64,000 nt of DNA from Candidatus Chazhemtobacterium aquaticus (lineage in GTDB: Bacteria; Patescibacteriota; Microgenomatia; UBA1400; Chazhemtobacteraceae), in contig NZ_CP047901.1 in NCBI RefSeq assembly GCF_009936135.1, positions 563,354 to 627,353 on the forward strand, in the 5' to 3' direction. Below, in pieces: positions 29,537 to 40,504 of this stretch; position 1 is the stretch's first letter, and each line of letters opens with the position of its first letter. The notes under the pieces were generated by a model, which saw nothing but the letters and a program-made list of their open reading frames with translations, made no database searches and had not been told where the DNA came from. Made by a program: the position numbers and the translations under genes.

Positions 29537-29748
29537 TACAGCATAATGCTCATAACCGCCAGACCGGTAAACAGCACTATCAATCCAATGGTGGCCGCAA
29601 ACACGTATCGCTCCAAACCCTTGCGAGAGTGGTAGCTAACACCACTTCCGCCAAAACTACTCCCCAATCCTGTTCCCTGGCTTTGTAGCATCACCAAGGC
29701 AATCAAGGCCACCGACACAAATATCTGTAGTAACAATAACCAATCCAT
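29536..29748 (-). CDS. secG: Preprotein translocase subunit SecG
   Basis: 70 aa. LLLLQIFVSVALIALVMLQSQGTGLGSSFGG...R.GLER fits the SecG consensus. Confidence 0.7.
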   Translation of the reverse strand: MDWLLLLQIFVSVALIALVMLQSQGTGLGSSFGGSGVSYHSRKGLERYVFAATIGLIVLFTGLAVMSIML

Positions 29749-29780
29749 ACCCCTATTCTATCAAAACCTGAAATTTATTC

Positions 29781-30223: not shown

Positions 30224-31552
30224 TTATGATAAACTCCGCCTGTCTCTTACTTGTTTATGATATCCCGTTCCAAATCTATGAGCCTCGTCTCTGATTTGCT
30301 GCAGTAACTGCAAGCCTTTAGATCTTCTTGGCATCTCTATCTCAATAAACTTACCCTCATAGAAAATCACAATCAGCTCTTCCTTTTTAGCCAAACCAAT
30401 CACTGGTACGTCCTTTATCAACTTCAAGGCTGTTGATAGTTGTGGCCTGCCTCCATCAACCAAAATTAAGTCAGGTCGTGGCCAATCAGTTCGCCTAGTT
30501 CTTCGAACAAGCATCTGCTTCATTGCCTCAGTATCGCTATTACTACCATCAAGCTTAAATTTTCGATAGCTACTTTTATCTGCAGTCCCCAAGAAAAAGA
30601 CCACCATCGCTCCCACCGTATCCATTTGTAGAGTAGTGGCCACATCATAACCCTCAATCCGCTCTAAACTAGACTCTATCCCGTAGCTACTCAACATAAC
30701 CTTTAGTTCGCGGATGGCTCGCTCAGGAGTTTGATTATCCTTTAGAAACTCAGCCAATCCGTGCCGAGTCTTGGTGGCCCATTTGACTGCCTCGTACATC
30801 TTCCTAACCTCCTCAGCCTCCTCATATTTTTCATTCTTAGCCAATCTTCGTATCTTCTTTTCTAAGCTAACCAACAAACCACTCGAACTCCCATTTAAGA
30901 ATCTCTTTAAGTATCCGATCTTACTTCGGTACTTTGTCTTACTAACCAATCCCGTGCAGGCGCCATCACACTTGCCAATATGGTAATAGAAACATGCTCT
31001 TTTAACGCCATTGTTAGGTGGATTTTGGCAAAACTTAAAAATATTTCTAGCCACTTTAAGTACCATCTCAGCTTCATAGCGGGTTCTAAATGGACCATAC
31101 ACTGACCTAAAATTCTCTATCTCACCACCTCTGATCAAACTAACCACTGGAAAATCTTCATTACCTACCATGATGTAGGTACTACTCTTGTCATCCTTCG
31201 ACATCGAGTTGTAAAAAGGTTGATGCAGACGGATCAACTTTGCTTCAAGTAGCAAACTCTCGATTTCCGACTCAACCTGATAAAACCTAATCCATTTGGC
31301 CAAATTAACAAACTCCTTTTGTTTACTTCTTGCCTCCTTAGCTTGTTGAAGATGTTGTTTAAGTCTGGACTTAGGATGAACCGATTTACCTATATACAGC
31401 GGTTTACCGGTCTCGTCTTCGAAGCAATAAACGGACGGCTGTGTAGGCACCCGCTGCCAGAATCGTGGCTCCAACTGCTCCGGCCGCCACTTTAACCGAC
31501 GTCCCCCAAGCTTCGTCTTGTTCGACTCTAACCATGATTTCTCGTTGTCCAT
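30224..31552 (-). CDS. uvrC: Excinuclease ABC subunit C (short form lacking the C-terminal HhH domain)
   Basis: GIY-YIG (VYCFEDETGKPLYIGKS...LKQH), a Cys-rich segment (CFYYHIGKCDGAC), and the C-terminal nuclease region DLILVDGGRPQLSTAL...IGLAKKEE...IRDEAHRFGTGYHKQ. The annotated 5' end overlaps the upstream gene by 148 nt, so the true start is probably downstream, possibly non-ATG. Confidence 0.8.
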   Translation of the reverse strand: MDNEKSWLESNKTKLGGRRLKWRPEQLEPRFWQRVPTQPSVYCFEDETGKPLYIGKSVHPKSRLKQHLQQAKEARSKQKEFVNLAKWIRFYQVESEIESLLLEAKLIRLHQPFYNSMSKDDKSSTYIMVGNEDFPVVSLIRGGEIENFRSVYGPFRTRYEAEMVLKVARNIFKFCQNPPNNGVKRACFYYHIGKCDGACTGLVSKTKYRSKIGYLKRFLNGSSSGLLVSLEKKIRRLAKNEKYEEAEEVRKMYEAVKWATKTRHGLAEFLKDNQTPERAIRELKVMLSSYGIESSLERIEGYDVATTLQMDTVGAMVVFFLGTADKSSYRKFKLDGSNSDTEAMKQMLVRRTRRTDWPRPDLILVDGGRPQLSTALKLIKDVPVIGLAKKEELIVIFYEGKFIEIEMPRRSKGLQLLQQIRDEAHRFGTGYHKQVRDRRSLS

Positions 31553-33257
31553 TCTTAATCAATAAATTACTTGGCGCGATTAATCCCTTACCTCGCGCCG
31601 TGTTAACAAGCATTACCCTTTCTCCGTAAGGTGGGATAACCTCCTCACGCACCTCGTCCACCACACCCTCAGGCTCTGATTTTATCACCAGGCTACCTCC
31701 TCCGGCCACCATGCCCTGATTCTTCACCGTTAATTCAATCACTCCTTTCCACCAATTTCGTTTGTATACAGCCTCAAACATCAAGTCCTCACTTGGCATT
31801 ACCACCGGGTCACTGGCAATCACCTTAACATCTTTATTGCTAGTCACCTCCGTCTTATATGCTCCAGCAGGCAAAGGATTCACTGGATCACTACCGTGGA
31901 TTACAAATACAAAGTGGTTCAAGTCCAGTTTATTAAAATAATCGACTCCTCCGGTCGTATCCCCCCAGGTTGGATCAATCTGTACCCACCGCCTTGTCTG
32001 CAAATCATAATACTCAGGCCAAGCATGCAAAATATCCTGGGTCAGACTCAAAGGTCGAAGTTTGTCATTACTAGTGAAAGCATAACCTTCCAGTTCTCTT
32101 GCTGGAATCCCCGCCGCTCTAGCCAATGTCACAAACAAATCCGTGAACTCAGTACAAATAGCCGTCTCAGGGGCATTTAAAGCAGCCAAAGCTCCCACTC
32201 GGCCACCTCCCGTTAACACCTTGTTGTAGTCATAACTTAAATAATCAGTCACGTAGTCATAAACAGACTTAGCTGATCCCAATTTATCAGCCAAGGCTTG
32301 TACCTGAGCATTGTCCACCTGCCAGTAGCCACTACTCGACAAATACGTCTCCCACATATCCTGATTGAGAATAGAGCCATCAGGATTAAAGCTTATCTTC
32401 ACTACTCCCGTTGTACTTACATCAAGTTTCTGACCGGGTAACAACGTGTACTGGGCCAGCCAGTTACCATCCTTATCAATCAATACATTTTCAGGCTCCG
32501 GCCTGATCGACTCATAAACCATTTTTTGGTAATTCGTGTCAGGTGGTATGGCAATCTCTGCTCCTTGTTTTACCGGGCTGTTATTTTCCAAATGGTAGAT
32601 CAGGTTAAAGCGCATATACTGCTCAGTTCCAAACACCGCCGAAATCGCCCTGTTACCCAAAGTCAATGCTTCAAAGCCATAACTATTACTCGTATTTGCC
32701 GCTGGCGGATTGTTCGTTGCTGTATCAGGTTTTGGAGTAATAAAAGCCGGCTCACCAAAAACAGATGGGACAATTAAGGTCACTTTCTGACTGGATATCT
32801 CTTTATCTGCCTCAAGCTGAGGAATGTTCACTTCCCAGATTGAGCCGTTCTTAATCGCAATATCCTGAGTTTCATAGCTTACCGAAAAACGATTTACCTT
32901 ACCCTTGCCCACTACCTTATCAACAAACATAAACCTGATAATTGTTTGATTATCAGTCACCACAATCTCTGGTTCGATCAAGCCAACGGCATCCTTAACT
33001 CTTACATTTCTAATATCAGTAAACCCTACCGACAGTGAGAATCGATCAGCATATACGTTACTTATCTTGTTTTCCAAGGATATATCAAGCACTACCTGAG
33101 TCACCCCATTAAGACCCACCTGATAAATACTGCTATAACTAGTCTCAAACTCAGAGGCGGCCATCAACCTCGGGGCAGACACCAACCACCAGCCCAACAT
33201 TAACACCACCAACAGTAACTTCTTCACACTGATATTTAACCAGCCGCCATGCCTCAC
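31404..33257 (-). CDS. Surface protein with transglutaminase-like cysteine-protease domain, C-terminal TM anchor
   Basis: Signal peptide present. The transglutaminase-core triad context is TAICTEFTDLFVTLARAAGIPARELEGY (Cys), LHAWPEYYD (His) and VQIDPTWG (Asp). C-terminal anchor AVGATILAAGAYTAVRLLLRRRDR. Confidence 0.6.
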   Translation of the reverse strand: MRHGGWLNISVKKLLLVVLMLGWWLVSAPRLMAASEFETSYSSIYQVGLNGVTQVVLDISLENKISNVYADRFSLSVGFTDIRNVRVKDAVGLIEPEIVVTDNQTIIRFMFVDKVVGKGKVNRFSVSYETQDIAIKNGSIWEVNIPQLEADKEISSQKVTLIVPSVFGEPAFITPKPDTATNNPPAANTSNSYGFEALTLGNRAISAVFGTEQYMRFNLIYHLENNSPVKQGAEIAIPPDTNYQKMVYESIRPEPENVLIDKDGNWLAQYTLLPGQKLDVSTTGVVKISFNPDGSILNQDMWETYLSSSGYWQVDNAQVQALADKLGSAKSVYDYVTDYLSYDYNKVLTGGGRVGALAALNAPETAICTEFTDLFVTLARAAGIPARELEGYAFTSNDKLRPLSLTQDILHAWPEYYDLQTRRWVQIDPTWGDTTGGVDYFNKLDLNHFVFVIHGSDPVNPLPAGAYKTEVTSNKDVKVIASDPVVMPSEDLMFEAVYKRNWWKGVIELTVKNQGMVAGGGSLVIKSEPEGVVDEVREEVIPPYGERVMLVNTARGKGLIAPSNLLIKNGQREIMVRVEQDEAWGTSVKVAAGAVGATILAAGAYTAVRLLLRRRDR

Positions 33258-33266
33258 TACAAGCCG

Positions 33267-36176
33267 CTAAATGATCTGTTTTAACTCCTGACCCGTATAC
33301 GATCGCTCACACTCAATGATTTTATTTAAATTACCAGCAACCAATATCTCTCCTCCTTTGTCTCCACCCTCAGGACCCATATCAATTATCCAGTCTGCGT
33401 TTTTAATCATATCTAAGTTGTGTTCAATCACCACCACTGTATTATCCTGCTTCACTAGGCGGTGTAAAACGATTAACAATTTTCTCAAATCCTCAAAATG
33501 CAGTCCTGTGGTTGGTTCATCCAAGACATAAACAGTATGACCCGACCCAGTTTTTGCCAGTTCCGCCGCCAACTTAATCCTTTGCGCCTCACCTCCGCTC
33601 AAGGTTGGTGCTGGTTGACCCAATTTAATATATCCCAGACCCACATCCTGCAACGTCTTAAGCCGTTTACTAATTGCCGGTACTCCCTTAAAGAACTCCA
33701 CCGCATCATCAACCGTCATCTCCAGTACCTCAGCAATATTCTTGCCCCGGTAATCAACCTCTAGAGTCGGCGAGTTATACCTACTCCCCTGACACACCTC
33801 ACACTTAACATATATGTCTGCCATAAACTGCATCTCAATCTTGGTTTGTCCCTCACCTTGACAGGCCTCACATCTACCCCCTTTGACATTAAACGAGAAC
33901 CTGCCCTGATTGTATCCTCGCATCTTTGCCTCAGATGTCATTGCAAACAATGATCTAATGTAATCAAAAGTCTTGGTATATGTAGCCGGATTACTTCTTG
34001 GTGTCCTACCAATCGGACTTTGGTCAATTAAACTAACCCTCTTTACCCTGTCAGGAATCATAATCGATTCATAATTCACCTGCTCTCGCTTATGTCGCTT
34101 GTTTAACTCTCTAGACAGAGCCTCATACAGAGTTTTAACAATTAAAGTAGACTTACCTGAGCCAGAGACTCCTGTTACACACACCATTCGATTCAGCGGT
34201 AGTTCTACATCAACTTGCTTCAAGTTGTGTTCACTCGCTCCCATTAAACGAATCTTCTCCGGATCCATCACTTTACTCTCATTACTCACCTCAATTTTCT
34301 TTTTGTTTGCCAGATACATTCCTGTCAGACTCTTTGTATCCTTCATCATGTTATTAACATCACCCTGATAGGTTATCTCTCCTCCCTGACTCCCAGCTCC
34401 TGGACCAAACTCAACAATCTCATCTGCTGACATCATCATTTCCCGATCATGCTCTACCACAATTAATGTATTACCCAATTTCTGCAGCTCCCGCAGTGTC
34501 CCGATCAATCTCTTGTTATCTCTCTCATGAAGACCAATGGTTGGCTCATCTAATATATACAATATCCCGGTCAATCTAGAGCCAATCTGGGAAGCCAATC
34601 TAATTCGCTGTAACTCTCCACCAGCAAGTGTACCCGCTTCACGAGCCAGAGTCAGATAGTCCAAGCCAACCGCTTCCAAAAACTTTAACCGGGACATAAT
34701 CTCCTCCACAATTGGCCCGGCAATCGTTTTCTCTTTCTCACTTAAACTGCTCATAACCGTCTCCATCCACTCGCGTGCATTCTCAATCGATAAAGCAGTT
34801 ACCTCAGAAATCGAGGCACTCAATATCGTCACCGCCAAAGCCTCCGGTTTTAATCGATATCCATGACACTCAGGACAAATCTCTTTAACCATGTATTTCT
34901 CAAGCTCTGTCTTGACATACTCAGAGCTACTCTCCGTATATCTTCTCTCCAGCTCGGGAATAATGCCGGCAAAACTAGTATGCCAAGTAGTCTCTCTTCC
35001 TTTAGAGTTAATCCCCTTAACCGCGTACTCTCGTTTACCCGTACCGTAAAGCAGTATCTCCCTCTGCTCATCTTTTAGATCTTTGATTGCCGTTTTGCTA
35101 TCAAACCCATTTTCTAAAGCAACCTGACGAATCAACTTAGCCATCCAAGTATTTGTCTCAAACTGGGCAGCCAGTGGAATAATTCCTCCCTCATCTAAAG
35201 TTAAACTTTCAGCCAATAACAACTCTGTCTTGACTACCAGTTTACTACCCAAACCACTACAAACCGGACACGCACCCTCGGGTGCATTAAAGGAGAACAT
35301 CCTCGGCTCAATTTCAGGCATACTCACATTACACTTCGCACAAGCAAACTTCTCGCTAAACAAGTGATCCTCCATCTCCACTGGCGACTCTGGGAAAGAC
35401 AATCCGTTATCGCCAACCACCGACATCACCACCAATCCAGCTGATATCTCTAGAGCTTGTTCAATTGCCTCAAACAATCTATTTTTGGTTTGTTTACCCA
35501 TCTCCTCATTCTTTTCAAAAACAGACTCAGGCTCGATTACGATCCTGTCAACTACTGCCTCAATGTTATGAAAATTGGTTCTGATTAACTCAACCCTGTC
35601 ATCAAGCTTCAAGATTTTTCCATCAACTCGGATTTGAGAGTAACCTTTCTTAGCCAATGTCTTAAACAGCTCCTTAAACTGTCCCTTTTGATGCCTCACC
35701 ACTGGAGCTAAAATAAGTAGCTTAACCCCTTTCTTCGCAGCCATCAGTTCATGTTTCCAAGCCATCCTTAGCATTAACCGGGTAATCTGTTCAGCGTCCA
35801 AACTGGTAATCTCCTCACCACAGTTAGGACAGTGGGGGTGACCTACTCTGGCAAACAACAGTCTTAGATAGTCATAGATCTCTGTCACTGTACCCACAAT
35901 TGATCTTGGATTATTCGACCCTGATTTCTGGTCAATCGAGATAGCAGGGGATAGTCCATCGATTCTGTCCACCTCCGGCTTATCCATCACTCCCAAAAAC
36001 TGTCTGGCGTAGGAGGATAGTGACTCGACATATCGCCTCTGACCTTCGGCATATATGGTGTCATAAGCCATACTCGATTTACCCGAACCAGATAGTCCAG
36101 TAAACACAATCAATTTGTTTTTGGGCAGATCAAGATCAACCCCTTTAAGATTATGTTGTCTAGCTCCTCGCACCAT
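33267..36176 (-). CDS. uvrA: Excinuclease ABC subunit A
   Basis: MVRGARQHNLKGVDLDLP, two ABC cassettes (GLSGSGKSS; VTGVSGSGKST), zinc-finger Cys clusters, and signature LSGGE motifs. The start was trimmed to the Met that aligns with the canonical UvrA N-terminus; the ORF track begins 12 codons upstream at a GTG. Confidence 0.95.
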   Translation of the reverse strand: MVRGARQHNLKGVDLDLPKNKLIVFTGLSGSGKSSMAYDTIYAEGQRRYVESLSSYARQFLGVMDKPEVDRIDGLSPAISIDQKSGSNNPRSIVGTVTEIYDYLRLLFARVGHPHCPNCGEEITSLDAEQITRLMLRMAWKHELMAAKKGVKLLILAPVVRHQKGQFKELFKTLAKKGYSQIRVDGKILKLDDRVELIRTNFHNIEAVVDRIVIEPESVFEKNEEMGKQTKNRLFEAIEQALEISAGLVVMSVVGDNGLSFPESPVEMEDHLFSEKFACAKCNVSMPEIEPRMFSFNAPEGACPVCSGLGSKLVVKTELLLAESLTLDEGGIIPLAAQFETNTWMAKLIRQVALENGFDSKTAIKDLKDEQREILLYGTGKREYAVKGINSKGRETTWHTSFAGIIPELERRYTESSSEYVKTELEKYMVKEICPECHGYRLKPEALAVTILSASISEVTALSIENAREWMETVMSSLSEKEKTIAGPIVEEIMSRLKFLEAVGLDYLTLAREAGTLAGGELQRIRLASQIGSRLTGILYILDEPTIGLHERDNKRLIGTLRELQKLGNTLIVVEHDREMMMSADEIVEFGPGAGSQGGEITYQGDVNNMMKDTKSLTGMYLANKKKIEVSNESKVMDPEKIRLMGASEHNLKQVDVELPLNRMVCVTGVSGSGKSTLIVKTLYEALSRELNKRHKREQVNYESIMIPDRVKRVSLIDQSPIGRTPRSNPATYTKTFDYIRSLFAMTSEAKMRGYNQGRFSFNVKGGRCEACQGEGQTKIEMQFMADIYVKCEVCQGSRYNSPTLEVDYRGKNIAEVLEMTVDDAVEFFKGVPAISKRLKTLQDVGLGYIKLGQPAPTLSGGEAQRIKLAAELAKTGSGHTVYVLDEPTTGLHFEDLRKLLIVLHRLVKQDNTVVVIEHNLDMIKNADWIIDMGPEGGDKGGEILVAGNLNKIIECERSYTGQELKQII

Positions 36177-36220
36177 CAGATGCGTTGCTGGTGATGTATT
36201 CCTCTCTTTCACAACCCTTA

Positions 36221-36244
36221 ATTTTACCAGAAAAATCCCGAAAG
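36221..36244 (-). promoter_or_regulatory. Conserved promoter-proximal motif shared by uvrA and uvrB (extended -10 plus a putative operator)
   Basis: The coding-strand sequence TTTCGGGATTTTTCTGGTAAAAT lies just upstream of uvrA. It contains TGGTAAAAT, an extended -10. A 23/24-identical copy lies upstream of uvrB. Confidence 0.5.
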
Positions 36245-36249
36245 TTTAG

Positions 36250-36744
36250 CTAGTCACTAGACTCAGCAGTACTAGCAAACAGTGCCGTATTAATCCCCAT
36301 CACGTGCTGAACCAATTTAGCTACATCAACACTCTCATCAGCCTCAAGCCGTTCAAAAACTCGATCTATTCCTTGATTTAGTCTATCCTCAACTTGAGCC
36401 AAATCATCGCCCCAACCTAAAGCAGTTACCATCTCATCCCTATCTTGAATCCATCCAGGTTCAAGTTTACCTGCTCCTCGAGTCACGGCCAACAATCTTC
36501 CAAGTAGAGCCCAAGGTGTGTATTCAAGTAACGCCTTCTCTTGAGCTGACAGTTTGTTACTACTTATCACCTTATCCATCGCCATTCTATACTGTCGCAA
36601 GCCTTCTTTCTGTTGCATCATCATTGGTTCAACTGTAAGAATCCGTTCACCCAATACTCCAAGTACCACCTCACTCATCCTCACTGACTCAGGCGTAAAA
36701 CCCATTTCCCTAGTTAAGAAGCGCAAGCCTTCAGTTTGTGCCAT
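36250..36744 (-). CDS. Hypothetical protein (orphan)
   Basis: A 164-aa ORF divergent from the next orphan. No motif recognised. Confidence 0.45.
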   Translation of the reverse strand: MAQTEGLRFLTREMGFTPESVRMSEVVLGVLGERILTVEPMMMQQKEGLRQYRMAMDKVISSNKLSAQEKALLEYTPWALLGRLLAVTRGAGKLEPGWIQDRDEMVTALGWGDDLAQVEDRLNQGIDRVFERLEADESVDVAKLVQHVMGINTALFASTAESSD

Positions 36745-36819: not shown

Positions 36820-37452
36820 ATGTCAGAACGCCCATTTGCTCCTGTTGAAGAAGAACGAGATTACTCGCCACCAACCAACGCTGAGTTTGTCTCAACCCCA
36901 GAGCTACGACAAAAAATAGAACAATGGCGCAAGGATAATCCAGACGCACCAGTTGTCATCGAAATCGGCTCGCGTAGTAATAATAATGATGGCGTCATAC
37001 TTCAAAGTAGCCAGCCTGATGTTAAAGGCGACCCCATACTGGTTATCCACGTAGATCCGCTCAATCAACCAACGGACAGGATTCCTGATGCACCACCCTC
37101 GTCCCATGCTTTTATAGTCCGCGATCGTTTTGATGCCGATATAGGCAGACAACTTAGAGGTCAGGTTGACCTAGCTGTGGTTGTTGGCCTTATTCCCGAT
37201 ATAGATATCGAGAACGAAATCCTTGAAGGCATCAAGAGACTTGCACCTCCATATGTTTATATTTCCTCTGATGCTGATAGTGGTGATCGTCAAGTTACTG
37301 GTTACACCGTTGCGCAAACCAGAAAAAATATTTCTCGTATCCTTGGCAATGAGTACTCCGCCGAAGACCCTATCCTTCCAGCTGATGTCAGACCAAATAG
37401 TAGTATTGTCACACAAGGTCGGTCACTTCGTATGGTTCTTGAGCGCGATTAG
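36820..37452 (+). CDS. Hypothetical protein (orphan, acidic/Pro-rich)
   Basis: A 210-aa ORF. No motif recognised. Confidence 0.45.
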   Translation: MSERPFAPVEEERDYSPPTNAEFVSTPELRQKIEQWRKDNPDAPVVIEIGSRSNNNDGVILQSSQPDVKGDPILVIHVDPLNQPTDRIPDAPPSSHAFIVRDRFDADIGRQLRGQVDLAVVVGLIPDIDIENEILEGIKRLAPPYVYISSDADSGDRQVTGYTVAQTRKNISRILGNEYSAEDPILPADVRPNSSIVTQGRSLRMVLERD

Positions 37453-37456
37453 TTTT

Positions 37457-39538
37457 CTATTCAATTTTTTCAATCAAATCACGCAGGGAAGCTGCCCGCT
37501 CAAACTCCCAGTTCTTAGCCGCCTCGTTCATTAATCTCCTTAGTTTCTTACTCAGTTTAAGCTTGTCACTTGGTGTCATTGCCTCAACATCTACATCATC
37601 AGGACTACTCCAGCCATAATCATCCAGTACATCCATCTTTTTTTTCTTGTTATCTACCTTAATCCTCTTTAAAAGCTTATCTCTCATTGGCTTAATGATT
37701 CCTTTAGGTACGATTTCATGTTTCAAGTTATACCTTTCCTGAATTTTTCTTCTTCTGGTCACCTCATCCATAGCTCGTCTCATTGAATCGGTAATCTTGT
37801 CAGCATAAAGAATCGCCTTACCCTCAACATGTCTAGCTGCTCTACCCATTGTCTGGATAAGTGAGGTTTCTGAGCGTAAAAATCCCTCCTTATCAGCATC
37901 CAAAATCGCCACCAATGACACTTCCGGAAGATCCAGACCCTCTCTAAGTAAGTTGATTCCCACCACAACATCCACCTCACCACTACGCAAATCATCCAAT
38001 ACATCAATCCTATCTAATGTCTCCACATCTGCATGAAGATAATGAACCTTAATTGGACTTTTTAGTTTGTATCCGATTTTTTCCTCTACCCGTTCACTGT
38101 CTTTTATATAATCAGCCAACTCCTCAGCCATTTTCTTCGTCAATGTGGTTGCTAGCACCCGCTCACACTTTTCTTTTCGTTTGACTATCTCTCTTATCAA
38201 ATCACTCACTTGGCCCTCAATTGGTCTCACCTCGATCACCGGTTCAAGCAAACCGGTTGGCCTAATCAGTTGCTCGACGACCTTGCCCCCTGCCAAATTA
38301 ATCTCCCACTCAGCCGGAGTTGCACTTACATAAATAGCCTGTTTAATCTTTCTGGCAAACTCCTCATACTTAAGAGGCCTATTATCTCTAGCTGATGGCA
38401 ATCTAAAACCATACTCTATTAATGTTTCTTTTCTAGCCTCATCTCCTCGATACATACCTTTAATCTGTGGCAGAGTAATGTGACTCTCATCAATTACGGT
38501 CAAAAATTTTTTCTTACCAAAAATCTCAGCATTATGCTGCATGTACTCAATCAAAGTGAAAGGTGCCTCACCAGGCTGTCGGCCATCGAAATACCGAGAA
38601 TAATTTTCAATACCATTCACATACCCCATAGTCATTAACATCTCCAGATCGTAGTTTACTTTCTGTTCCAGTCTATGAGCCTCTAGTATCTTGCCTTGAT
38701 TCTTAAGCTCTTTACTTCGCTTGGCCAAATCTTTCTTTATCTCCTCCACCGCTTTATCCTGACTGTACACATCTGCCAAGAAATGTTTAGCCGGAGATAT
38801 CACTGCCCGTTTCTCTCTTCCTTCACTCTCACCTGTAAGCAGTAGGGGAGTCAGATCAACTGAATCAACCCAGATTAAATCCTTTATCTCCTTCTCACCA
38901 AACACAATTCTTAACACCTCATCTTTATCAGCTGGCCACACCTCAACATACTCACCCCTTACCCTAAAATTTCCCCTAAGCAATTGACCTCTAGTCCGCT
39001 CATACTGCATGTCAACTAACCGTTTCATTACCTCTTCACGTCCAATCAGCTCACCACTAATCAGCTCCAACATATTCAGAGCATAATCCTTTGGCGAACC
39101 CAAATTATATATACATGACACCGAAGCCACCACAATAACATCCGGTCTTGTCAGCAAGTTGGTGGTTGCCGCCAGTCTCAATTTATCTATCTCATCATTA
39201 ACACTCGTCTCCTTTTCAATATAGGTATCAGACTGGGGGATATACGCCTCTGGCTGATAGTAGTCATAATACGACACAAAGTATGACACAGCATTTTCTG
39301 GAAAAAAATCTCTAAATTCCTGGTACAGTTGAGCCGCTAATGTTTTATTGTGGGAAATGATCAAGGTAGGTAGTTTCACTTCCTCAATCACCTTGGCCAG
39401 ACTAAATGTCTTGCCCGAACCCGTCACTCCTAGCAACACCTGACCGCTCTCATTCTGTCTGATTCCTTCCACCAATTTTTTTATAGCTTCTGGTTGGTCT
39501 CCTCCTGGTTCAAATGGTGATTTCAATTTAAAATCCAT
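37457..39538 (-). CDS. uvrB: Excinuclease ABC subunit B
   Basis: N-terminal GDQPEAI, Walker A GVTGSGKTF, DESH, helicase motifs, and a C-terminal UVR domain (KLSKKLRRLMNEAAKNWEFERAASLRDLI). Confidence 0.95.
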   Translation of the reverse strand: MDFKLKSPFEPGGDQPEAIKKLVEGIRQNESGQVLLGVTGSGKTFSLAKVIEEVKLPTLIISHNKTLAAQLYQEFRDFFPENAVSYFVSYYDYYQPEAYIPQSDTYIEKETSVNDEIDKLRLAATTNLLTRPDVIVVASVSCIYNLGSPKDYALNMLELISGELIGREEVMKRLVDMQYERTRGQLLRGNFRVRGEYVEVWPADKDEVLRIVFGEKEIKDLIWVDSVDLTPLLLTGESEGREKRAVISPAKHFLADVYSQDKAVEEIKKDLAKRSKELKNQGKILEAHRLEQKVNYDLEMLMTMGYVNGIENYSRYFDGRQPGEAPFTLIEYMQHNAEIFGKKKFLTVIDESHITLPQIKGMYRGDEARKETLIEYGFRLPSARDNRPLKYEEFARKIKQAIYVSATPAEWEINLAGGKVVEQLIRPTGLLEPVIEVRPIEGQVSDLIREIVKRKEKCERVLATTLTKKMAEELADYIKDSERVEEKIGYKLKSPIKVHYLHADVETLDRIDVLDDLRSGEVDVVVGINLLREGLDLPEVSLVAILDADKEGFLRSETSLIQTMGRAARHVEGKAILYADKITDSMRRAMDEVTRRRKIQERYNLKHEIVPKGIIKPMRDKLLKRIKVDNKKKKMDVLDDYGWSSPDDVDVEAMTPSDKLKLSKKLRRLMNEAAKNWEFERAASLRDLIEKIE

Positions 39539-39546
39539 CAATCTAA

Positions 39547-39571
39547 CATTTTACCAGAAAAATACCCGAAA
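39547..39571 (-). promoter_or_regulatory. uvrB promoter motif (copy of the uvrA motif); -10 sits about 10 nt from the start codon, suggesting a leaderless mRNA
   Basis: The coding strand reads TTTCGGGTATTTTTCTGGTAAAATG, nearly identical to 36221-36244. Confidence 0.5.
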
Positions 39572-39591
39572 TCTTCTACTTGACTTCGGGT
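39564..39591. promoter_or_regulatory. Palindrome ACCCGAA-N14-TTCGGGT in the uvrB-lexA divergent promoter region (candidate operator)
   Basis: It overlaps the lexA -35 (TTGACT 39580-39585; -10 TAAATT 39603-39608, only 7 nt before the ATG) and abuts the uvrB motif. Confidence 0.4.
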
Positions 39592-39614
39592 TTTATTTGT
39601 CATAAATTCTAATC

Positions 39615-40229
39615 ATGGCAGTCACCCTTTACAAGCGACAACGACAAATCGTTGATTTTATCTCCCAATACATTCAAGTTCATGGTTACTCACCCACTCT
39701 TCAAGAAATTGCCGATGCCTTAGGTGTCTCCTCACTAGCTACCGTACACGAACATCTTCAAGCCCTAATCAAGAAAAAAATCATCCGCAAATATGAAGGC
39801 GCTGTCCGAGGTATCGAACTGGTTGACAAAAAGATTGGCCAGGCCTTAAGTACCGTCGAACTTCCCATTCTAGGCTACATAGTCGCCGGTAAACCAATCG
39901 AACCCTATGATGAACCAGACGCTACCTTAAAAGTCTCTCCAGAGATGATCACTGGCAAACGCAAAGCTTTTGTTCTACGTGTTAATGGTGAGAGCATGCG
40001 TGATGATGGTATCTTTGATGGCGATTTTGTAGTCTGCGAAGAAACCAATCAGGCTGATAACGGTGATATAGTGGTAGCTCTTTTGGAAAACGGCTTAGCC
40101 ACTCTTAAAAGATTCTTTAGAGAAAAAACCCGAATTCGACTAGAACCAGCTAATGCTTCAATGAGCCCCATCTACGCCACCAGAGTTCGTATCCAAGGCA
40201 AAGTAGTTGGTGTTATCAGGCGCTTTTAG
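39615..40229 (+). CDS. lexA: LexA repressor (S24 peptidase)
   Basis: N-terminal wHTH (SPTLQEIADALGVSSLATVHEHLQAL). The cleavage region is VAGKPIEP, followed by the Ser/Lys dyad context VNGESMRDDGI...LKRF. Confidence 0.9.
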   Translation: MAVTLYKRQRQIVDFISQYIQVHGYSPTLQEIADALGVSSLATVHEHLQALIKKKIIRKYEGAVRGIELVDKKIGQALSTVELPILGYIVAGKPIEPYDEPDATLKVSPEMITGKRKAFVLRVNGESMRDDGIFDGDFVVCEETNQADNGDIVVALLENGLATLKRFFREKTRIRLEPANASMSPIYATRVRIQGKVVGVIRRF

Positions 40230-40234
40230 TTGAT

Positions 40235-40504
40235 ATGGTAGAAAGACCAAACACTCCTCCAGAAGCCTTCCCTGGAGCTTTCTTTGAGTACGATGAAGGC
40301 TCACCCACTGGCACCATGATTCTCCACTACCATGGACATATCTCTGCACAAGACCTAGAACTCTTTGACCTTCTTCCCGATCAGGCAGTCATCACTCATA
40401 CCACCGGTATCGAAGATGAACCCATCACTCGTGTCGAGTTCATAGCCCCCAACCCTGACTATATGGACGAAAACAACTCTCCCTTACCTGAAACTCTCGA
40501 ATAG
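40235..40504 (+). CDS. Small acidic hypothetical protein directly downstream of lexA
   Basis: An 89-aa ORF beginning 6 nt after the lexA stop. No motif recognised. Confidence 0.35.
   Translation: MVERPNTPPEAFPGAFFEYDEGSPTGTMILHYHGHISAQDLELFDLLPDQAVITHTTGIEDEPITRVEFIAPNPDYMDENNSPLPETLE

Follow-up and report, generated by a model that had tools for sequence, protein, structure and literature searches.

The uvrB and lexA genes of Candidatus Chazhemtobacterium aquaticus are transcribed away from each other from a short common spacer, and the question raised by this locus is whether the inverted repeat that lies there is an operator in its own right. An earlier note on this DNA, made from the sequence alone, had described a palindrome, ACCCGAA-N14-TTCGGGT, which overlaps the lexA -35 hexamer TTGACT, had placed a -10 hexamer close to the start codon of each gene, and had proposed the repeat as an autoregulatory operator. 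We followed up this proposal in the window, by which we mean the whole 64,000-nucleotide stretch of contig NZ_CP047901.1 that was analyzed, and in the corresponding regions of relatives. The inverted repeat, its overlap with TTGACT and both -10 positions are borne out by the sequence (Table 1). Our results point to a different origin for the repeat. The spacer probably consists of two outward-facing modules, each combining a promoter with an operator, in which each arm of the palindrome would be the distal TTCGGGT unit of that module's own direct-repeat LexA box.

Table 1. Features of the uvrB-lexA spacer and of the related site upstream of uvrA, in window coordinates
Feature	Position	Strand	Remarks
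uvrB CDS	37457..39538	-	start ATG 39538-39536
lexA CDS	39615..40229	+	TIGR00498 lexA equivalog, 186.7 bits (cutoff 110.95)
Left arm of inverted repeat, ACCCGAA on the plus strand	39564..39570		
Right arm of inverted repeat, TTCGGGT	39585..39591		
lexA -35 hexamer TTGACT	39580..39585	+	promoter scan; 17-nt spacer to -10
lexA -10 hexamer TAAATT	39603..39608	+	6 nt before ATG 39615
uvrB -10 hexamer TAAAAT	39548..39553	-	9 nt before ATG; preceded by TGG (extended -10-like)
uvrB-side box TTCGGGTATTTTTCTGG (TTCG-N7-TTCT)	39554..39570	-	first unit is the palindrome's left arm
lexA-side box TTCGGGTTTTATTTG (TTCG-N7-TTTG)	39585..39599	+	occupies the -35/-10 spacer; putative autoregulatory operator
uvrB module TTCGGGTATTTTTCTGG-TAAAAT	39570 to 39548	-	
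lexA module, TTGACT overlapping TTCGGGTTTTATTTG, then TAAATT	39580 to 39608	+	
Third module copy, TTTCGGGATTTTTCTGG + TAAAAT	36221..36243	-	8 nt upstream of uvrA GTG 36212

The identities of the two flanking genes are clear. UvrB matches the NCBIfam UvrB equivalog with 940 bits against a cutoff of 743, and relatives align with its N-terminus, MDFKLKSPFEPGGDQP, from residue 1-3. The start that is kept in relatives is the ATG at 39538, the TTG at 39541 being a one-codon extension in the list of open reading frames. The earlier note had given the spacer as 73 nt; it is indeed short and divergent, but with the conserved uvrB ATG its length is 76 nt (39539-39614), and the gap between the two arms is 14 nt. 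On the other side of the spacer, the top homologs of LexA belong to Candidatus Collierbacteria, to Microgenomates and to the 'Patescibacteria group', which places the window in the candidate phyla radiation, and both PF01726 and PF00717 are on record for all listed homologs. An alignment of 25 homologs that includes the window protein shows no variation at the Ala91-Gly92 cleavage site, at Ser127 or at Lys165, and the encoded LexA can be firmly predicted to be a canonical one, with a self-cleavage site and a Ser/Lys dyad.

An acidic 89-aa open reading frame without a family match begins 5 nt after the lexA stop codon (40235-40504, plus strand). A homolog of 47% identity occupies the same position in the relative L081, whose LexA is 95% identical, and is absent in L086 and L089. 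This may be a fast-evolving gene that is co-transcribed with lexA.

The leaderless type of geometry that had been suggested for both promoters holds up in our analysis. Because the -10 hexamer ends 6 nt before the lexA ATG, the predicted transcript start coincides with the A of that codon, which supports a leaderless lexA mRNA; the corresponding 9 nt at uvrB support a near-leaderless transcript with a predicted leader of about 3-5 nt. A GGAGG-like Shine-Dalgarno sequence is absent upstream of both lexA and uvrB. This arrangement appears to be widespread in the window and not special to the uvrB-lexA locus: at half of the open reading frame starts (28 of 56) a TAnnnT box is found 3-12 nt before the start, most commonly at 6-9 nt, and a Shine-Dalgarno-like sequence is found at few of them. 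Among Patescibacteria, uvrB promoters have a TATAAT-type box 6-10 nt from the start codon. The predicted length of the lexA leader differs between close relatives: the window and L081 have about 0 nt, L002 and L086 about 4 nt, and L001, L083, L085, L088 and L089 about 45-55 nt. Comparable leaderless mRNAs are known from Actinobacteria, Mycobacterium tuberculosis among them (PMC3898074, PMC4633059), and the cases share a gap of about 6-9 nt between the -10 element and the start codon and the lack of a Shine-Dalgarno sequence, the geometry at our locus being a prediction from sequence.

The window also has a marked compositional asymmetry. Its plus strand contains 27.5% C and 15.7% G, and the GC skew of -0.27 is present in every 4-kb bin. 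At third codon positions, genes on the plus strand have a skew of -0.43 and those on the minus strand one of +0.45, and the bias therefore follows the DNA strand and not the orientation of the genes.

The palindrome as such is not significant by a chance test, because 12% of shuffles of the 76-nt spacer hold some perfect 7-bp inverted repeat with a loop of 3-30 nt. Such a repeat is likewise present in 103 of 1683 tiles of 76 nt from the window. Unlike the palindrome as such, the specific sequence of the arms is not random: CCCGAA-N8-24-TTCGGG has a single occurrence in the 64 kb, 100 shuffles yielded no occurrence, and both arms overlap a motif that is kept in relatives. The statement that the repeat matches neither of two familiar LexA consensus sequences was confirmed. 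With up to one mismatch allowed, the Cheo box GAAC-N4-GTTC is absent from 39539-39614 and is not above chance in its count across the window, and the E. coli-type CTGT-N8-ACAG is absent from the spacer and occurs in the window as often as expected by chance.

The repeat can be extended to a stem of 10 pairs with an 8-nt loop and one mismatch, which on the minus strand is a G-U pair. It could be argued that the arms are there to form a nucleic-acid structure, be it a bidirectional intrinsic terminator, an insulator hairpin or a cruciform, that would stop antisense or read-through transcription. The predicted folding energies, -15.4 kcal/mol on the minus strand (z = -3.75) and -12.3 kcal/mol on the plus strand (z = -3.0), are in keeping with this suggestion, as is a scan that returned a terminator-like call on the minus strand, in which the 10-pair stem and 8-nt loop are followed by AUUUUUCU, giving a G+C-rich hairpin with a U-run. 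The hairpin, however, would lie upstream of both predicted transcript starts, between divergent genes, where no known transcript ends. In relatives the arm changes ACCCCAA and ACCCAAA stand opposite an unchanged TTCGGGT, so they are uncompensated and there is no covariation; conservation falls on the sequence and not on the pairing, and an Rfam search of the region gave no match. We consider a structural role of this kind barely credible.

The nature of the conserved motif emerges from the lexA promoters of relatives. Our sample comprised 80 genomic loci encoding LexA relatives of 68-91% identity, together with 10 contigs carrying closer relatives (82-95%). Unsupervised motif discovery by EM on 79 lexA upstream regions from Patescibacteria, with the window excluded, returned TTGAC..TTCG-N7-TTCGG-T-TAnnnT, a direct repeat whose units recur every 11 bp and which lies between the -35 and -10 elements. 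The core TTCG-N7-TTYG is present in 26 of the 79 regions, against 0.4 expected, and the N6 and N8 spacings are not enriched. The divergent arrangement seen in the window, CGAA-N16-TTCG, occurs in only 3 of the 79; a convergent one, TTCG-N13-CGAA, is found in 19, which belong to another clade and carry it downstream of the -10 element. Matrix matches of at least 15 bits at lexA promoters number 66. The LexA box in this group is thus likely, as judged from these regions, to be a same-strand direct repeat at a set spacing, conserved at lexA promoters in the manner of an autoregulation signature. The lexA-side box of the window lines up in register with the TTCG-N7-TTCGG that is conserved among the relatives.

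The lexA promoter of the other clade has a second conserved element downstream of its -10, TTCGGG-N5-TACGCCCGAA, which fits two descriptions, TTCG-N7-TACG and the palindrome TTCGGG-N9-CCCGAA. It was found at lexA of L027, L028, L041, L043-L047, L050, L070, L074 and L077-L080, and also in L095, L108, L113, L161, L181, L193 and L196. Changes in its arms are uncompensated, and a protein site is therefore favored over an RNA hairpin. When metagenome contigs were scanned with this element, 112 of the matches listed (at least 120) had no upstream direct repeat and were mostly on G+C-rich contigs. The 8 listed matches that did have one were all on contigs of 32-45% G+C, and 7 of these 8 precede lexA. 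The scan revealed no further regulon genes among the matches listed.

An alignment of 11 close relatives (LexA identity 81-100%), anchored on the lexA promoter, shows how differently the two arms of the window's palindrome behave. The sequence TTGACTTCGGGT is invariant in the 11 relatives, whether uvrB or another gene lies upstream. The left arm reads ACCCGAA at a spacing of N14 in the window, L081 and L001, ACCCAAA at N13 in L084, and ACCCCAA at N16 in L002 and L086. L088 and L003, in which uvrB is adjacent, have a degenerate left arm or none, and L083, L085 and L089, in which a different gene is upstream, have none; a left arm occurs only where uvrB is the neighbor. Besides the window, a 7/7 inverted copy is found in L001 and L081 only, with 6/7 copies in L002 and L086 (N16) and in L084 (N13), and once these closest relatives are set aside, the frequency of inverted copies upstream of the lexA box over the 79 loci does not exceed that in shuffled flanks. 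Because TTGACTTCGGGT is invariant while the left arm drifts, shifts its spacing or is missing, the palindrome is, on the comparative evidence, most likely a by-product of two divergent operators and not an operator itself. As a unit it is essentially not conserved in relatives; its arms are, individually.

This pattern bears directly on the possibility that ACCCGAA-N14-TTCGGGT is a single palindromic operator through which one LexA dimer, or another dimeric regulator, controls both promoters. Palindromes make up the majority of known LexA boxes, the arms form a perfect 7-bp repeat that is unique in the window, and both L081 and L001, the closest relatives, retain arms at N14. A single operator is nevertheless hard to reconcile with spacings of 13, 14 or 16 and with a left arm that drifts or disappears beside an invariant right arm. 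The divergent arrangement is also rare at lexA promoters compared with the direct repeat (3 against 26 of 79), its 28-bp span exceeds the 11-18 bp of the LexA boxes in the papers cited here, and the uvrA promoter, described below, has the same module with one arm. We regard a single palindromic operator as quite unlikely. The proposal of an autoregulatory operator stands to the extent that a likely LexA operator overlaps the lexA promoter; it is the direct repeat that is conserved, and only the right arm of the palindrome would belong to it.

In L088 and L089 an inverted box unit, ACCCGAA, is located directly before the lexA ATG, about 60 nt downstream of TTGACTTCGGGT and beside a second -10-like box. 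This may be a second operator or a second promoter.

The uvrB side of the spacer was assessed by scanning both strands of the window with a 24-column matrix trained only on the lexA promoters of relatives. The best match is the uvrB-side site TTCGGGTATTTTTCTGGTAAAATG, with 19.3 bits. With an operator-only matrix of width 17 this site scores 14.4 bits and ranks first among about 128,000 positions, the uvrA site ranks 2-3 and the in-register lexA site 16-22. With the 24-column matrix the last of these scores only 4.6 bits, since its -10 element is offset by 1 nt. The uvrA-side site, TTTCGGGATTTTTCTGGTAAAAT at 36243-36221, repeats the uvrB module almost exactly within unrelated flanks, although with a spacing of N6 instead of N7. 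The 14-mer TTTTCTGGTAAAAT has exactly two sites in the 64 kb, one upstream of uvrB and the other upstream of uvrA, the latter gene being identified by Pfam and followed by a transglutaminase-like gene and then uvrC. The second repeat unit is degenerate at all three window sites, reading TTCT at uvrB, TTTG at lexA and TTCT at uvrA, and the TTCGGGT element begins 16-18 nt upstream of the -10 in all three promoters.

These matches have to be set against the view that the palindrome is coincidental, with at least its uvrB-side copy functionless. The chance frequency of perfect 7-bp inverted repeats in shuffled spacers is compatible with that view, and a box is missing from most Patescibacteria uvrB promoters. 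Coincidence would have to account, however, for a uvrB-side site that a matrix derived independently of it ranks first in 64 kb and that has an almost exact duplicate before uvrA despite unrelated flanks. We find it very unlikely.

How specific the element is within the window can be judged from the remaining promoters. The spacers of about 25 other candidate promoters in the window contain no TTCGGG, and we rejected TTCGGG as a general promoter element on that account. These other candidates show a weak enrichment of G two bases before the -10 hexamer, and only that G looks general. Since the other promoters are without TTCGGG and the other annotated neighbor genes are housekeeping genes, the element appears, within the window, to be specific to lexA and the excision-repair genes. 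The loose core TTCG-N7-TTYK has 8 matches across the window against 7.7 expected and therefore cannot be used alone to call sites.

A small SecG-like open reading frame on the minus strand (about 29540-29760, identified by eye) has a promoter, TTGATA..TAGGGGTATGGATTGGTTATTGT, that scores 14.2 bits with the lexA-promoter matrix. The GG-N-TAnnnT portion of the matrix therefore partly reflects general promoter features, and the GG of the second unit may in part be a general extended -10 feature.

It is conceivable that the TTCGGGT element is functional but is not LexA's, and belongs either to another regulator of excision repair and lexA or to a promoter element specific to this clade. The almost constant distance between the element and the -10 hexamers of the three window promoters would fit such a role, the second unit of the element overlaps the G-rich extended -10-like position of other promoters, and the case for LexA binding is made from sequence. 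A general role in promoters is at odds with the absence of the element from the other candidate promoters of the window. It is instead present at essentially every lexA promoter in diverse Patescibacteria, the classic signature of LexA autoregulation. In L008, L009 and L024, moreover, the uvrB side has a perfect TTCG-N7-TTCG at varying distances from the -10, which is the behavior of an operator and not of a promoter or polymerase-contact element. A statement on LexA direct-repeat motifs in the literature, discussed below, also has a study of Patescibacteria among its references. An element that is not LexA's is in our judgment unlikely. The direct repeat TTCG-N7-TTYG is likely to be the binding site of the encoded LexA; conservation of the kind seen under autoregulation, a LexA protein of canonical type and the literature together lead us to infer binding and repression.

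The distribution of the box suggests that the lineage of the window gained LexA-type control of excision repair, because the uvrB and uvrA promoters of most other Patescibacteria are without the repeat and have only a TATAAT near the start codon; the uvrA of L009 does carry a box. No recA is present in the window or in the 90 fetched loci, and these contain no other classical SOS gene with which the regulon could be compared. In L002 and L086, uvrA directly follows uvrB. In the window the two are separated by the open reading frames 36250-36744 and 36820-37452, which encode 164 and 210 aa and match neither Pfam nor NCBIfam. This gene order suggests that an insertion split a uvrB-uvrA operon and that the module of promoter and box was duplicated.

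The genes uvrA, transglutaminase-like and uvrC (30224-36212, minus strand) have the same orientation and apparently form one unit. The pairing of uvrA with a transglutaminase-like gene is present also in the relative L086.

A more ambitious extension of this picture is that the excision-repair genes uvrB and uvrA, the latter together with the downstream uvrC, joined the LexA regulon in a Collierbacteria-like lineage through the spread of a compact element of about 24 nt, TTTCGGG[T]ATTTTTCTGGTAAAAT, which combines operator and leaderless promoter. Back-to-back with the lexA box, this element would form a single 45-bp bidirectional SOS switch on which LexA dimers bind cooperatively, the box centers being about 30 bp, or three helical turns, apart. 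We put this forward tentatively and think it rather doubtful as a whole.

There is a precedent for the overall layout. In Bacillus subtilis, lexA (dinR) and yneA diverge from a short spacer in which several LexA boxes repress transcription in both directions. As proposed for the uvrB-lexA case, lexA and a damage-inducible gene share one short intergenic region. The B. subtilis boxes are palindromes of the Cheo type (GAAC-N4-GTTC), and lexA is paired there with the gene for a cell-division inhibitor; at our locus it is paired with uvrB, the putative boxes are direct repeats, and the transcripts look leaderless.

Direct repeats are known from other LexA proteins. The alphaproteobacterial LexA recognizes GTTC-N7-GTTC (PMC4951493, PMC8565304), which resembles the TTCG-N7 repeat described here in its 4-bp core, 7-nt gap, 11-bp period and shared TTC. 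The register and the sequence are different, however, the phylum is unrelated, and the second unit is degenerate in the window. PMC7739468 states that LexA independently evolved the recognition of direct repeats several times, with the cases treated there as independent origins, and one of the three references given in support is the 2017 study of the Patescibacteria SOS response by Sanchez-Osuna et al. That study of the Patescibacteria SOS network (Sanchez-Osuna, Barbe and Erill, Environ Microbiol 2017;19:3465) is cited in both PMC7739468 and PMC8565304. The superphylum, the regulator family and the placement at the lexA promoter are the same as here, and the direct-repeat statement agrees with TTCG-N7-TTCGG. 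The likeness to the Patescibacteria LexA box is drawn from the statement of the citing paper, and in our sample most relatives lack a box at the uvrB and uvrA promoters.

We propose the following mechanism for the two-module arrangement. Each module would comprise a TTCGGGT unit, a weaker TTYKG unit 11 bp further on and then the -10 box. A LexA protein bound to the direct repeat in the spacer between -35 and -10 would block RNA polymerase at lexA, resulting in autoregulation, and likewise at uvrB and uvrA. Following DNA damage, RecA-stimulated self-cleavage of LexA would release all three promoters, with transcripts beginning at the lexA start codon itself and within a few nucleotides of that of uvrB. 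The 7-bp palindrome would be nothing other than the two distal TTCGGGT units viewed on opposite strands.

The region does not overturn the current understanding of LexA and would be an ordinary case of a known kind of DNA-damage control region, namely two divergent copies of the direct-repeat type of SOS box attributed to Patescibacteria, with no new palindromic LexA box. It offers a clean example of a putative repressor site packed into the -35/-10 spacer of leaderless-type promoters. The 76-bp fragment, with its three natural variants (lexA, uvrB and uvrA), is suited to probing how a LexA dimer reads a direct repeat. Reading such sites correctly, as what are probably paired direct repeats, matters for the annotation of regulons in the uncultured bacteria of the candidate phyla.
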